In this document: one piece after another, positions 2,550 to 5,144 of the stretch
Layout: the number at the start of each line of letters is the position of its first letter
Numbering within the stretch: position 1 is the first letter of the stretch
Virus record (IMG/VR): IMGVR_UViG_3300045988_129059
Coordinates: 1 to 5,144 of that record
Length of the DNA stretch: 5,144 bases
Origin: a virus
Reading direction: 5' to 3' (one strand)
Notes under the pieces: generated by a model
What the model was told of the DNA's origin: nothing
The model's input: only the letters and a program-made list of their open reading frames with translations
Databases searched by the model: none
Program-made: the position numbers and the translations under genes

Positions 2550-2747
2550 CTACTTTGCCAGCAATTTACGCTCATAATAATGCTTTGCATCCAGACACCG
2601 ACAAAGATCCAAAAGCATATTATTAATATAAACAGGCATACAACTACGAGAGTCCCAATTACGCACAGTCGCAAGCGGTATCTCAAATTTATCCGCAAAC
2701 TGCACCTGCGTAAGTCCTAACCTCTGACGAATATCATGTGACGTCAT
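2550..2747 (-). CDS. Small helix-turn-helix DNA-binding protein of 65 aa (XRE family, HigA/MqsA-antitoxin-like HTH). It is a putative transcriptional regulator.
   Basis: LGLTQVQFADKFEIPLATVRNWDSRSCMP fits the HTH pattern ...L.LTQ..FA..FG....TV.NWE.GRR.P, recalled from memory. AAGGAG (2759-2764) lies 11 nt upstream of the ATG at 2747, and the stop is TAG at 2550-2552. The gene has its own promoter and palindromic operator. Confidence 0.7.
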   Translation of the reverse strand: MTSHDIRQRLGLTQVQFADKFEIPLATVRNWDSRSCMPVYINNMLLDLCRCLDAKHYYERKLLAK

Positions 2748-2764
2748 ATATAATACATCTCCTT

Positions 2765-2785
2765 TACTATGTTATAAACATAGTA
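2765..2785. promoter_or_regulatory. Operator-like palindrome tactatgtt-ata-aacatagta (9-bp arms) overlapping the -10/TSS of the HTH promoter. A third ACTATGT half-site at 2801-2807 overlaps the -35.
   Basis: The arms are exact inverted repeats, sited exactly where an autoregulatory repressor site would be expected. Confidence 0.5.
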
Positions 2786-2810
2786 TAGCAAATCTGCAGA
2801 ACTATGTCAA
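2782..2810 (-). promoter_or_regulatory. Near-consensus sigma70 promoter for the HTH gene (and possibly rep). The -35 is TTGACA (plus 2805-2810), the spacer is 17 nt, and the -10 is TATACT (plus 2782-2787).
   Basis: The viral strand reads TTGACAtagttctgcagatttgcTATACT. It begins 5 nt after the VP2 stop and 35 nt upstream of the HTH ATG. Confidence 0.55.
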
Positions 2811-2814
2811 TACA

Positions 2815-3486
2815 TTATCCAAAAATTCTACCCAAAAGTCCAGCGGCACTATTAACCATTGAGCCAATAAAGTTTGCATTTTGTCCACGCTTATCTGTTT
2901 TGGCTTTAACATCTGTACTATACTTATTACCCTTATAAGACTTATTACTAGAGTACTTAGTCGACTGATAAGACATATTAGACGCATATTGACTAGCCGC
3001 ATAATTACGATCGGCACTATACCGGGACGCATTGGCGGATGTCTGCGCCGCAAAGCGGTGAGCGTCAGCCTGCAACTGAGCCGCTTGCAAAGCAGTCTGC
3101 TGAGAGATACGAGCAGCCTCCAAAGTAGCATCCCTCTGCATCTGAGCAATCGCCTGAGCATTTGCATTATTTTGCTGATTAACAATGATCGATGTAAGAG
3201 CCGGGACAACAGATTCATCCACTTTACCAGAGGCACCGGAAGCAGTCGCACCGGAACCAGTCTGAGCACCAGAGCCACCAGCGGCAAGCACCGGGTTAAG
3301 TCCGGCTTTTTGTAAATCCAAAACCTCACGCTGATGAGCAGTGGAGGACTGCTCCGCTTGCCATTGACGATTTTTTTCCGCTTCCGCAGCATTAAATTTC
3401 ATTTCTTCGCGGGCAAATTCCTGAGATTGTGCCGTATTTTTTGCACTAATGTCTGATATTTTATTAAATAATTGATCTTCTGTCAT
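2815..3486 (-). CDS. VP2: VP2 minor capsid/DNA pilot protein, about 223 aa. The true start is probably the ATG at 3486 (MTEDQLFNKISD...) rather than the track start at 3543.
   Basis: GAGGAG lies 9 nt upstream of the ATG at 3486. The segment NRQWQAEQSSTAHQREVLDLQKAGLNPVLAAGG matches the gokushovirus VP2 motif (QREAW...ER.SNTAYQR...D.KAAGLNPILA), from memory. The rest is a low-complexity Q/A/S/G-rich region, and the stop is TAA at 2815-2817. Confidence 0.8.
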   Translation of the reverse strand: MTEDQLFNKISDISAKNTAQSQEFAREEMKFNAAEAEKNRQWQAEQSSTAHQREVLDLQKAGLNPVLAAGGSGAQTGSGATASGASGKVDESVVPALTSIIVNQQNNANAQAIAQMQRDATLEAARISQQTALQAAQLQADAHRFAAQTSANASRYSADRNYAASQYASNMSYQSTKYSSNKSYKGNKYSTDVKAKTDKRGQNANFIGSMVNSAAGLLGRIFG

Positions 3487-3580
3487 AATTTTTTCTCCTC
3501 TAGCACTCCGATCGAGACCGTAAACCAGTAAATTGTTGCACAATTTACAAGTTGACTGTCTCTCTCGTTGAGTGCTTAAT

Positions 3581-3610
3581 GGTAAACAAGGACAGACGCA
3601 CCCGTCTGTC
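3581..3610 (-). terminator. Hairpin with an 8-bp perfect stem (gacagacg-cacc-cgtctgtc), followed on the viral strand by CUUGUUUACC. It is a candidate, probably leaky, terminator about 70 nt downstream of the VP1 stop.
   Basis: Exact inverted repeat at 3591-3598 / 3603-3610 with a U-rich tail on the viral strand. Confidence 0.45.
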
Positions 3611-3665
3611 CCTGCCGTGACATATTATTAATTAAGCAACCAAAAAACTCATTTATTAAGTTTAT

Positions 3666-3686: not shown

Positions 3687-5144
3687 ACGCAATCCCGGAA
3701 TACTATGGACAGGCATAACACGGGTCGTAAGGTTTTTAATATAAAAATCACCAAAGATCTGATCGGCAACTTTTGACGTAACCGCAAGAGTACGGTCAAC
3801 ATTAGTCTTATCCTCCTGTATCCAAGATGCAGACAACGTAGGTTTTTGCTGATAATAGTCAGCAAAATGCCAGGACTGCAAAGACTTGTCAATACCAGAG
3901 CGCATCTCACCAGTTACAATACTCGGTTTATAACGATAATCCGCCCAAGCCTCTTGGTAGCCAAACACATCGTCAAGACTGCCAAAACCATCATTGTCAT
4001 AATAAATCTCACGAGTATATACGGGTTGCTCTCCAATATTTGCCAAAATCGGGAAATAATAGTCCAAACGATCTCTACGAGACCACATACGATTAAGACC
4101 CTGCTGATAGGTATGATTATACCGGGCACACATAAGACCGATCACAAAGCCATGCTCCGTAAATGATTTGACAAAACTATTGTCTGTATTATTTGTCAAA
4201 GACATAGCCGCTGTCGTACCAAGAGGGGTCTGACCAGACTCCGACTGCTGGACAATCTGATGCACATTGATACGAGTACGATTAGCAGACAACAGCTCCG
4301 GACGCTGTAAACGTCCATCCGGAGAGATGACACCAAAATGACCTCGTAAAAGCTCAATATAACGACTACCTGAACGGGCATCAGTCTCAAGCATCTGTTG
4401 AGTGGCAAAAGCAAGACGCAAACTATTAACGGTCAAAGCATCAGCCGATGACGTATCACCTACAAGATTATTGGGATAAAATAAACCATAATTATCCTCT
4501 GTAATCTCACCAGTCTGACTACGATCATAACCAAAACCGGAAACATTATTAGGTCTTGATGGCAACTTAGGCGCAAGACCAACCATAACAGGAGAGACCG
4601 TCTTATTAGGCTCAAGAGATCCACCATTAATATTATACATCATCATAGCTGGCTTTTTGCCAGATACAACAGGAGCATCTCTAGTAACAATCGGGATATC
4701 ACCAAACAAAGAGGATATCGTCACATCATCACCTTTCTGCGGCTCGGGCAGTACAGACGTAAAATAATCATGTAATTTATTGACTTTTAAAAGCTTACCA
4801 CCTTTTGCGGAGTTATTAGCATCAAATCTAACATCACCATCATCAGTATCAACCAAAATAGCGTCCTGCAAATTCTCATCCCGAAACCACTCATTCCAGA
4901 TCAGGTTATAAGCATTAATCGGCAGCCGAGAGATGGATAATACTCCACTTGGGTTAACCGGTACTCCAAAATAATCTAAAAGTGATTTTTGGAGCGGCTT
5001 TTTGTCAGATGCCTCATAGATCAACTGTGGGACCTGATAAGTAACATCCGAGGTCCAAGCCTCGGCAGACTCTCCCATAAACTCTTTCCAGTGGCTCCAG
5101 CAGAGCCGGGACGGCACATAAAAATAATACATGTCCAAAAAAAG
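3678..5144 (-). CDS. VP1: Major capsid protein VP1 (Microviridae F-like), C-terminal about 488 codons including the TAA stop at 3678-3680. The ORF continues upstream through the circular junction into 100-330.
   Basis: The 486-aa track ORF contains the conserved Microviridae capsid motif AYNLIWNEWFRDENLQD. The segment MDDLFLDMYYFYVPSRLCWSHWKEFMGES parallels Chlamydia phage VP1 (MDNLRLDTQYFFVPLRLIWSNFQKFCGEQ), recalled from memory rather than aligned. Length and composition are typical of gokushovirus VP1. Confidence 0.9.
   Translation of the reverse strand, partial: LFLDMYYFYVPSRLCWSHWKEFMGESAEAWTSDVTYQVPQLIYEASDKKPLQKSLLDYFGVPVNPSGVLSISRLPINAYNLIWNEWFRDENLQDAILVDTDDGDVRFDANNSAKGGKLLKVNKLHDYFTSVLPEPQKGDDVTISSLFGDIPIVTRDAPVVSGKKPAMMMYNINGGSLEPNKTVSPVMVGLAPKLPSRPNNVSGFGYDRSQTGEITEDNYGLFYPNNLVGDTSSADALTVNSLRLAFATQQMLETDARSGSRYIELLRGHFGVISPDGRLQRPELLSANRTRINVHQIVQQSESGQTPLGTTAAMSLTNNTDNSFVKSFTEHGFVIGLMCARYNHTYQQGLNRMWSRRDRLDYYFPILANIGEQPVYTREIYYDNDGFGSLDDVFGYQEAWADYRYKPSIVTGEMRSGIDKSLQSWHFADYYQQKPTLSASWIQEDKTNVDRTLAVTSKVADQIFGDFYIKNLTTRVMPVHSIPGLRKL
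5046..5144. repeat. Second copy of the terminal redundancy (identical to 1-99).
   Basis: Exact 99-nt identity with the window start. Confidence 0.95.

Follow-up and report, generated by a model that had tools for sequence, protein, structure and literature searches.

A predicted helix-turn-helix regulator with its own promoter and palindromic operator upstream of the replication gene of a gokushovirus-like microvirus

The DNA analysed here is the whole of a 5,144-nucleotide stretch of the IMG/VR record IMGVR_UViG_3300045988_129059 (hereafter the window), and the subject of this work is a small gene within it which encodes a 65-residue protein of the XRE-type helix-turn-helix (HTH) class (MTSHDIRQRLGLTQVQFADKFEIPLATVRNWDSRSCMPVYINNMLLDLCRCLDAKHYYERKLLAK). 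The first 99 nt of the window recur at its end as a terminal repeat, and it represents a complete circular genome with a unit of 5,045 nt, a GC content of 42% and every gene on the minus strand. Because of its gene set and the family matches of its products (Table 1), the genome was assigned to a gokushovirus-like microvirus: it encodes a VP1 F-type capsid protein, VP2, a VP3 scaffold of the Chlamydia-phage type, a VP4 replication initiator (Rep) with an HUH motif and a small basic protein, all on one strand of a circle within the range of approximately 4.5–6 kb. Its nearest GenBank genome is Dulem virus 137 from lemur faeces (77.5% identity over a quarter of the genome), and its close relatives come from human-gut and other metagenomes. 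The gene order VP1-VP2-HTH-hairpin-VP4 bears out an earlier note on this DNA, made from the letters alone, which had placed the HTH gene in the slot between VP2 and VP4. Read along the coding strand, the elements follow one another as promoter and operator, HTH gene, a hairpin with a 16-bp stem, VP4, a terminator-like hairpin and the promoter of the structural genes.

Six close homologues of the HTH protein were identified in independent ENA and Logan samples. All are 65 residues long, share 77–95% identity and occupy the same VP2-HTH-hairpin-VP4 slot on contigs of 4–5.3 kb, with more distant members of the family lying in the same region of microvirus genomes in IMG/VR and GenBank. Pairwise ratios of nonsynonymous to synonymous substitution (dN/dS) between the gene and its relatives range from 0.11 to 0.16 at dS of 0.75–1.6, and the open reading frame (ORF) is therefore under purifying selection. 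An exhaustive profile search returned 645 proteins at E <1e-3 and 52 at E <1e-10. Proteins of the core family have 58–110 residues, of which approximately 48 at the N-terminus are conserved (consensus M[TN][ST][HK]xIRxxLxLTQxxFAxxFxIPLxTV[RK]NWD[AS]RxCMPxY), followed by a variable and mostly helical tail; R7, Q14, T27, N30, W31 and P38 are invariant. The search also brought up long proteins of 240–650 residues (P0007, P0011, P0031 and others) in which three to eight NWE-type HTH units stand in tandem with acidic linkers between them.

The earlier note had described an HTH of the type NW[DE]x[RG]xxxP, and this motif is present at residues N30-W-D-S-R-S-C-M-P38. The protein matches PHROG 7950, a "transcriptional repressor" (E 3.6e-5), as well as the Pfam families HTH_3 (17.7 bits with a cut-off of 23, E 0.004) and Phage_CI_repr (15.4 bits with a cut-off of 22); PF01381 is precomputed on four of the weaker matches of the profile search (P0161, P0165, P0174 and P0175). 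Matches to NCBIfam models, all far below their cut-offs, were to VC1465/XafT, PRK10072, NadS, the MqsA-type HTH, a HipB-like model and RstR, and across 28 members of the family the commonest were NadS (21), the MqsA HTH (21), VC1465 (19), PRK10072 (15) and RstR (10). By sequence, the best relative of solved structure is the XRE protein Atu1735 (PDB 2ppx, E 1.8e-4). An AlphaFold2 model built from 28 sequences has four helices and a mean confidence (predicted local distance difference test, pLDDT) of 95.6, and its positioning and recognition helices can be superposed on those of solved XRE domains. Structurally, Aca2 and a 76-residue chain of AcrIF25 come nearest to the model. An HTH fold is thus predicted with high confidence, which is the outcome that the earlier note had proposed to look for by structure prediction, and its assignment of the protein to the XRE or MqsA/HigA type of HTH is supported by both sequence profiles and the predicted structure.

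By consensus scan the promoter of the HTH gene matches sigma-70 at 11 of 12 positions, the best match in the genome. The near-consensus promoter and the half-sites over its −10 box, start site and −35 box that had been noted from the letters are all present. Half-sites of the form ACTATGT/ACATAGT occur at 2766–2772, 2778–2784 and 2801–2807, the first two as parts of a perfect 21-bp palindrome, which we designate operator O2 and whose core TATGTT-N3-AACATA lies at 2768–2782. The third, over the −35 box, reads as the remnant of an upstream operator, O1; filamentous-phage relatives have O1 as a complete palindrome (TATGTTATTGACATA), and so does a second promoter of the microvirus contig L008. Perfect inverted repeats (arms ≥9 nt, loops ≤5 nt) number three in the genome (mean in shuffled sequences 0.06), and the window has a single occurrence of the operator core TATGTTNNNAACATA, even with a tolerance of two mismatches. 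A palindromic operator thus stands at the gene's own strong promoter in the position of an autorepressed unit, as the earlier note had it.

The conservation of these elements ties the operator to the gene. Across the six microvirus relatives, TATTGACATA, the −10 box, TGTT.ATAACATAGTAAAGGAG and the context of the ATG are invariant and the 17-nt spacer is almost free to vary; the −35 and −10 boxes, the operator and the Shine-Dalgarno (SD) sequence are all invariant or nearly so, with synonymous sites of the adjacent gene near saturation (proportion of synonymous differences, pS, 0.5–0.66). The core TATGTT-N3-AACATA was also found upstream of genes of the HTH family in three contigs that are not microviral (L012, L013 and L016). 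These encode Zot-like assembly ATPases and a rolling-circle Rep, of the Rep_1 type in L012 and L016, and the filamentous Clostridium phage CAK1 has the Rep most similar to that of L016 (E 1e-41). In these filamentous-phage contigs one copy of the operator embeds the −35 box (TATGTTATTGACATA), and a second follows the −10 box or, in L013, lies upstream of the −35 box; the flanks of the three loci are unrelated. Promoter and operator are thus conserved and linked to the HTH gene across two phage families. Two wider searches added little: the longer pattern TATGTTNNNAACATAGTAAAGGAG was found in L147 alone, a contig with a disrupted or mis-assembled HTH ORF, and an exact search of IMG/VR for the 15-mer TATGTTATTGACATA gave at least 120 matches, mostly in large unrelated contigs, with no family HTH gene among the matches listed. 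The latter result is uninformative, since a 15-mer matches by chance in a database of that size.

The operator sequence changes with the subgroup of the protein. Nine genomes of group A, the group of the window, have the motif (up to two mismatches) 12 times in the 1,170 nt upstream of the gene and six times in the 46,016 nt elsewhere. Proteins of group B have S instead of T at position 13 and I or V instead of L or F at position 25. In the register of solved XRE repressors, position 13 would begin helix 2 and position 25 the recognition helix. Between the −35 and −10 boxes, group-B genes carry a palindrome of their own, (TA)ATTGA-A-TCAAT(TA), together with TAATCAAT repeats, and ATTGA-N-TCAAT occurs five times in the 650 nt upstream of these genes, with no occurrence in 23,566 nt elsewhere. 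The motif of one group is absent from the promoters of the other. The one cross-group near-match, of B type with one mismatch, lies within the VP2 coding sequence of the window, 121 nt before the ATG, and we take it as chance. The module has moreover been exchanged between genomes that are nearly identical in other respects: L001, of group A, shares 85–95% identity along the genome with Dulem virus 137, of group B (protein XCD04540.1), and 38–69% across the HTH module, with the only other fall in identity in a loop of VP1, and L010 behaves likewise when compared to L001.

The closest relative of the window is L008, with an HTH protein 95% identical, and it possesses a second promoter with both operators (GAGTATGTTATTGACATACTC ... 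TATACTATGTTTATAACATA) driving a 95-residue ORF, possibly a regulated cargo gene, which has no Pfam match and matches weakly to a PHROG of unknown function. This extra copy of the promoter lies between VP4 and the structural promoter (L008 2050–2410), with TATGTTATTGACATA over its −35 box and TATGTTTATAACATA after its −10 box. Because the conserved footprint, the operators of the filamentous phages, the subgroup-specific operators and the module swap and second promoter all point the same way, the case for the HTH protein binding the 21-bp palindrome is strong, though indirect.

A different account of this conservation would see in the palindrome and promoter a signal of the 5'-untranslated region or of translation, or a structural element of the DNA near the origin, with the HTH protein acting elsewhere, for example on host genes. 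The right half-site, on the SD side, is indeed invariant and contiguous with the SD, with the left half varying among the relatives, and the palindrome is approximately 230 nt from the origin-like hairpin described below. However, the palindrome takes other positions relative to the SD in the filamentous-phage loci (over the −35 box or upstream of it) and changes together with the protein subgroup, and since the predicted start site falls inside it, the mRNA would be without its left arm. We regard this account as very unlikely.

The gene order also bears on what the promoter transcribes. The genome scan found no terminator-like site between the HTH stop codon and the start of VP4, and in L024–L026, L270 and L271 the hairpin lies upstream of the HTH gene, leaving a gap of approximately 20–40 nt between HTH gene and VP4 that holds only a ribosome-binding site. 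From these two observations an early transcription unit of HTH and Rep is proposed, in which VP4 is probably co-transcribed from the HTH promoter and whose end is proposed to be the terminator-like hairpin directly after VP4.

We therefore favour, with moderate confidence, a reading in which the 65-residue protein is a small dimeric XRE repressor within a cassette that has its own promoter and operators and exerts negative feedback on HTH and Rep. After conversion of the incoming single strand to double-stranded DNA, host sigma-70/sigma-A RNA polymerase would fire the promoter at 2782–2810, giving HTH protein, and would most likely pass the conserved hairpin into VP4 and stop at the terminator at 1396–1429. 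The HTH protein, presumably dimerised by way of its long C-terminal helix, would then bind the palindrome over −10/+1 (2765–2785), possibly aided by the −35 half-site, and the bound dimer would exclude polymerase. The expected outcome is a burst of HTH and Rep expression which is then clamped.

Several observations weigh against this reading. As 22% of shuffled genomes contain a promoter match of 11/12 or better, the match of the HTH promoter is not significant on its own, and the Poisson probability of approximately 1e-19 for the group-A motif is overstated, related microvirus loci having been counted as independent. Every score of the HTH protein to a curated family is under its cut-off, and an earlier, shallower structure model yielded weak structural matches only. 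Three family loci (L026, L271 and L023) have neither a recognisable sigma-70 promoter nor either type of operator upstream of the gene. With regard to VP4, a weak promoter-like site (GTGACA-16-AAAAAT, 9/12) stands in front of it, and the 16-bp hairpin between the two genes might impede read-through. Finally, no terminator was found between VP2 and the HTH promoter, so that transcription running on from the structural operon could escape a control that acts at initiation; a bound repressor would in that case be a roadblock rather than a block at initiation.

The upstream regions of the family vary in other ways. In L023 a deletion of approximately 37 nt relative to L022 has removed the promoter and the spacer operator. 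L026 and L271 share a different palindrome, AGTTATCC-N5-GGATAACT, upstream of the HTH gene, which may be a third type of operator or a terminator. In L013, at approximately 4905–4960 and just upstream of the two full operators, there are about four tandem 11-nt repeats (TATAACATTTA), each with an AACAT half-site, in an iteron-like arrangement.

Table 1. Features of the window around the HTH gene and in the rest of the genome.
Feature	Position	Strand	Remarks
VP1, major capsid protein	from 3678 upward, wrapping to about 330	minus	Phage_F, E 1e-119
VP2, pilot protein	2815–3486	minus	pilot-protein PHROGs
−35 hexamer TTGACA	2805–2810	minus	consensus scan; TATTGACATA invariant in six relatives
Half-site ACATAGT overlapping −35	2801–2807	minus	left half degenerate in window
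Extended −10, TGcTATACT	2782–2790	minus	17-nt spacer from −35
Operator O2, perfect 21-bp palindrome TACTATGTT-TAT-AACATAGTA	2765–2785		spans −10 and predicted transcription start
Shine-Dalgarno AAGGAG	2759–2764	minus	11 nt before ATG; invariant in relatives
Coding sequence of 65-residue XRE-type HTH protein	2550–2747	minus	stop TAG 2550–2552; predicted helices 4–10, 14–20, 25–34, 39–64
Perfect 16-bp-stem hairpin	2498–2538	minus	between HTH gene and VP4; loop CTACTTGAT on coding (viral) strand
VP4, rolling-circle replication initiator	1432–2457	minus	REP_ORF2-G2P, E 9e-20; HUH motif PHYHLILF; paired tyrosines in YVARY
Intrinsic-terminator-like hairpin, 15 pairs + T6	1396–1429	minus	strong; directly after VP4 stop
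Second conserved promoter, before structural genes	1343–1369	minus	TTGACA-ATA-C(8)-GGTA-TACAAT; directly after VP4 terminator
37-residue basic protein	1195–1308	minus	
VP5-like protein	905–1198	minus	
VP3, scaffold	430–942	minus	Chlamy_scaf, E 3e-20

The hairpin between the HTH gene and VP4 has a folding energy as DNA of −18.5 kcal/mol (z = −7.0). Its top, CAGTTAC-NN-ACTTGATGTAACTG, was found in at least 119 microvirus contigs of IMG/VR (L148–L266), among the matches listed as a single copy in each genome unit, located on the coding strand in every case and just before or after VP4. The top also occurs in 198 microvirus records of GenBank, where the DNA around it nearly always lacks annotation. 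Below this conserved top, the next four positions of the stem form Watson-Crick pairs in 50–60 of 60 distinct sequences, with two to four types of pair at each; the lower stem appears to covary. The loop ACTTG-AT resembles what we take to be the nick site of the phiX174 origin, CAACTTG/ATATTAATAAC, and the hairpin is a candidate for the (+)-strand origin, with CTACTTGATGTAAC as the candidate nick substrate of VP4, which would be cut after ACTTG. Literature searches, which covered few subscription-journal papers, returned no description of this hairpin. A role as intrinsic terminator of the HTH transcript was considered and set aside: no run of T follows the hairpin on either strand, and it is therefore not a canonical terminator.

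The interval between this hairpin and VP4 varies among relatives (L001/L002 at 4249–4458, L004, L009–L011 and L021–L023), some of which carry an extra 69-residue ORF there, and others have two further conserved hairpins in it, GTTCGCCGTAGGCGGAC and GGGGACT...AGTCCCC, both of which the window lacks. The intergenic region between VP1 and VP2 (3520–3611) also contains conserved structured elements: a hairpin GGACAGAC..GTCTGTCC at 3590–3611, then CAGTCAACTT (3549–3558), a hairpin at approximately 3528–3548 whose pairing is kept though its sequence differs in relatives, and TGGTTTAC. These may serve as an origin for the complementary strand or as an attenuator; a second CAACTTG motif lies inside the region. 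At the structural promoter, the relatives have C9 or C7G3 in place of the homopolymer of the window, and TATAAT; as homopolymer length sets the spacer, this is 15 or 16 nt, which could reflect phase-variable promoter strength or simply homopolymer sequencing error. Five tandem 12-nt repeats at 433–492 code for PKEQ repeats at the C-terminal end of the VP3 scaffold (EPPKEQPKEQPKEQPKEQPKEE).

The HTH gene is absent from all 119 of the IMG/VR microvirus genomes listed with the same conserved hairpin, in agreement with the view of the earlier note that the regulator is an accessory gene outside the ordinary gokushovirus set. Its sole GenBank occurrence is the gene annotated as hypothetical in Dulem virus 137, and searches of IMG/VR and of JGI/ENA metagenomes added a dozen further family contigs of at most 5.3 kb. 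In all 38 strong clusters of the family (E <1e-16) the longest contig is 0.9–6.3 kb. A scan of 185,579 bacterial and archaeal species genomes (one each) with the family profile, conducted with one degenerate peptide pattern so that divergent integrated copies could be missed, found no real copy. Two short matches in GC-rich Pelomonas DNA were rejected as spurious, since they lie inside unrelated ORFs. A tblastn search of 72,556 PLSDB plasmids returned only generic alphaproteobacterial XRE genes at 39–47 bits and no member of the family.

These distributions bear on whether the regulator could be a lysogeny switch of the CI/Cro type, in a temperate microvirus which uses XerCD to integrate at the host dif site, or, as a variant, an activation factor of Xer like XafT. 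In enterogokushoviruses a phage dif motif lies between VP2 and VP5, near the N-terminus of VP4 (PMC7062461), which agrees in general position with the earlier note's view of the VP2–VP4 region as the dif slot; in the window, however, this slot holds the hairpin and not a dif site. The best dif-like sequences in the genome (17–19 of 28 positions, using dif of E. coli, V. cholerae, B. subtilis and S. aureus, from which that of the host may differ) lie outside the slot and are within the range of shuffled sequences. Neither an integrase nor a recombinase was present among the genes found in the window, which has one HTH gene and one operator-bearing promoter, without the second regulator expected of a bistable switch. 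The absence of copies from the species genomes and plasmids, together with the confinement of the strong family members to contigs of at most 6.3 kb, leaves the proposed lysogeny by integration unsupported. The XafT variant draws on the top NCBIfam match of the protein, to VC1465/XafT (E 1.9e-5), a model also matched by 19 of the 28 family members. This match comprises model positions 2–50 of 111, the HTH half, at 24.7 bits with a cut-off of 70, whereas the XerD-activating function of XafT of phage TLCphi is carried by DUF3653 (PMC6744903). DUF3653 gave no Pfam match in the window protein, which at 65 residues is too short for it, and identity with XafT was therefore rejected, the more so as there is no dif-like attP. 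What the two have in common is the N-terminal XRE HTH and a small single-stranded-DNA element as carrier. Overall, we consider integration through dif, in either form, highly improbable.

An anti-defence role was also weighed, whether as an orphan antitoxin mimic against host toxin-antitoxin abortive infection, as the earlier note had suggested, or as an Aca-like regulator or Acr-like effector. The HTH subtype is common to MqsA, HigA, NadS and HipB, the nearest structural neighbours of the model are the AcrIF25 chain and Aca2, and the 95-residue ORF of L008, under the same operators, could be a payload. Nevertheless, the neighbours of the gene in the window are VP2 and VP4, with no adjacent toxin and no payload gene between promoter and HTH gene, and PADLOC gave E 0.02 or worse. 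The N-terminal zinc domain of MqsA, the part that binds toxin, is missing, and the conserved operator already accounts for the conserved DNA-binding surface. AcrIF25 acts through its C-terminal domain (PMC13131331), which may not be the part represented by the matched chain. Small ORFs beside the homologues have no relationship to one another and no match to a toxin family; Pfam and PHROG searches with those of L008 (95 residues), L001 (69), L013 (82), L012 (63) and L016 (91) gave nothing usable. Such a role is unlikely. Among the functions proposed beforehand, a regulator of rep and an immunity or superinfection repressor fit the anatomy of the locus, whereas the antitoxin mimic has a generic HTH resemblance only.

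The negative-feedback reading can be extended to immunity, an extension that we consider possible but doubtful. The HTH protein would act as the repressor of an episomal carrier state, shutting the replication operons of resident and incoming phages with the same operator and allowing persistence without integration as well as homo-immune exclusion. Swapped specificity classes, such as the rstR types of CTXphi, are typical of phage immunity regions, and here two classes of protein and operator occur, with the module exchanged between genomes otherwise 85–95% identical. The cassette is also common to filamentous phages, which infect chronically, and a circular DNA form in which gokushoviruses can persist confers immunity to superinfection (PMC7062461). 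On the other hand, no second regulator, antirepressor or induction signal was found, the window has a single full operator, and most gokushoviruses with the same hairpin lack the HTH gene. It is with still more reserve that we suggest that some gut gokushoviruses hold a repressed episome by way of an exchangeable immunity module, one which recombination carries between filamentous phages and Microviridae that infect the same Bacillota hosts.

Microviruses rank with the most abundant phages in animal guts and have been seen as minimal lytic machines, in which the only recognisable accessory functions are methyltransferases and lysis genes, and which rarely if ever exchange genes outside their families (PMC9239249); the literature on temperate gokushoviruses mentions no regulator (PMC7062461). 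Our full-text searches, again covering few subscription-journal papers, returned no report of an HTH or transcription regulator in microviruses. A regulator which heads the replication gene and exists in at least two types of specificity offers a concrete handle on how microviruses might limit their own replication, and the cassette is also relevant to their possible persistence in a host and exclusion of relatives. That it is common to microviruses and filamentous phages shows that both groups of single-stranded-DNA phages draw on a common pool of regulatory modules. If the suggested exchangeable immunity module were real, microviruses would gain their first described transcriptional switch and their first regulatory cassette spanning two phage families. 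A test of the prediction would cost little, as one 65-residue protein and a 60-bp DNA fragment suffice.

With regard to known systems, the proposed mechanism is that of a standard XRE autorepressor and it is the microvirus setting that is new. The feedback logic resembles that by which Aca proteins act on acr promoters, Cop and CopG on the rep operons of plasmids and, in CTXphi, RstR on the rstA promoter. The antitoxins MqsA, HigA and HipB and also Atu1735 (2ppx) have the HTH subtype in common with the window protein, with an NW[DE]..P turn after the recognition helix. MqsA differs in having a CxxC pair, which the window protein lacks, and the match to TIGR03830 is confined to model positions 72–116 (17.4 bits with a cut-off of 61.8). 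The conserved operator accounts for the DNA-binding domain, and with neither toxin partner nor zinc domain the likeness to antitoxins lies in the HTH subtype.

Among the closest systems are the HTH autorepressors of the Aca type (Aca2, PDB 7vjo; Aca1, Aca7 and Aca10), along with YdiL (1s4k). No acr gene precedes the HTH gene of the window, however, which is the first of its unit and is followed by the replication initiator VP4 as downstream cargo; no curated Aca/DUF1870 model matches the protein at the sequence level, and Aca2 has 118 residues with an extra C-terminal domain as opposed to 65. A trans version of the Aca arrangement, with the same operators and a separate 95-residue ORF, could be represented in L008.

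Copy-control repressors heading plasmid rep operons, such as CopG of pMV158 and Cop of pSK41 (PDB 8dtq), provide a second parallel. CopG has a ribbon-helix-helix rather than an HTH fold. The antisense RNA component of plasmid copy control is not part of the window system, and the family had no member among the 72,556 plasmids.

The third parallel is RstR of CTXphi, a phage in which the repressor occurs in specificity variants, rstR is divergent from rstA and integration proceeds by XerCD. The HTH gene of the window is instead co-directional with rep, with its operator at the upstream promoter, and neither a dif-like site nor an integrated copy accompanies it; the RstR model NF041951 is matched by 10 of the 28 family members, and by the window protein at 16.7 bits with a cut-off of 80. 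Nevertheless, both are XRE-type HTH repressors (predicted as such here) of single-stranded-DNA phages, both are encoded beside a rolling-circle rep gene, and both have variants of repressor and operator specificity that are exchangeable between otherwise similar phages.

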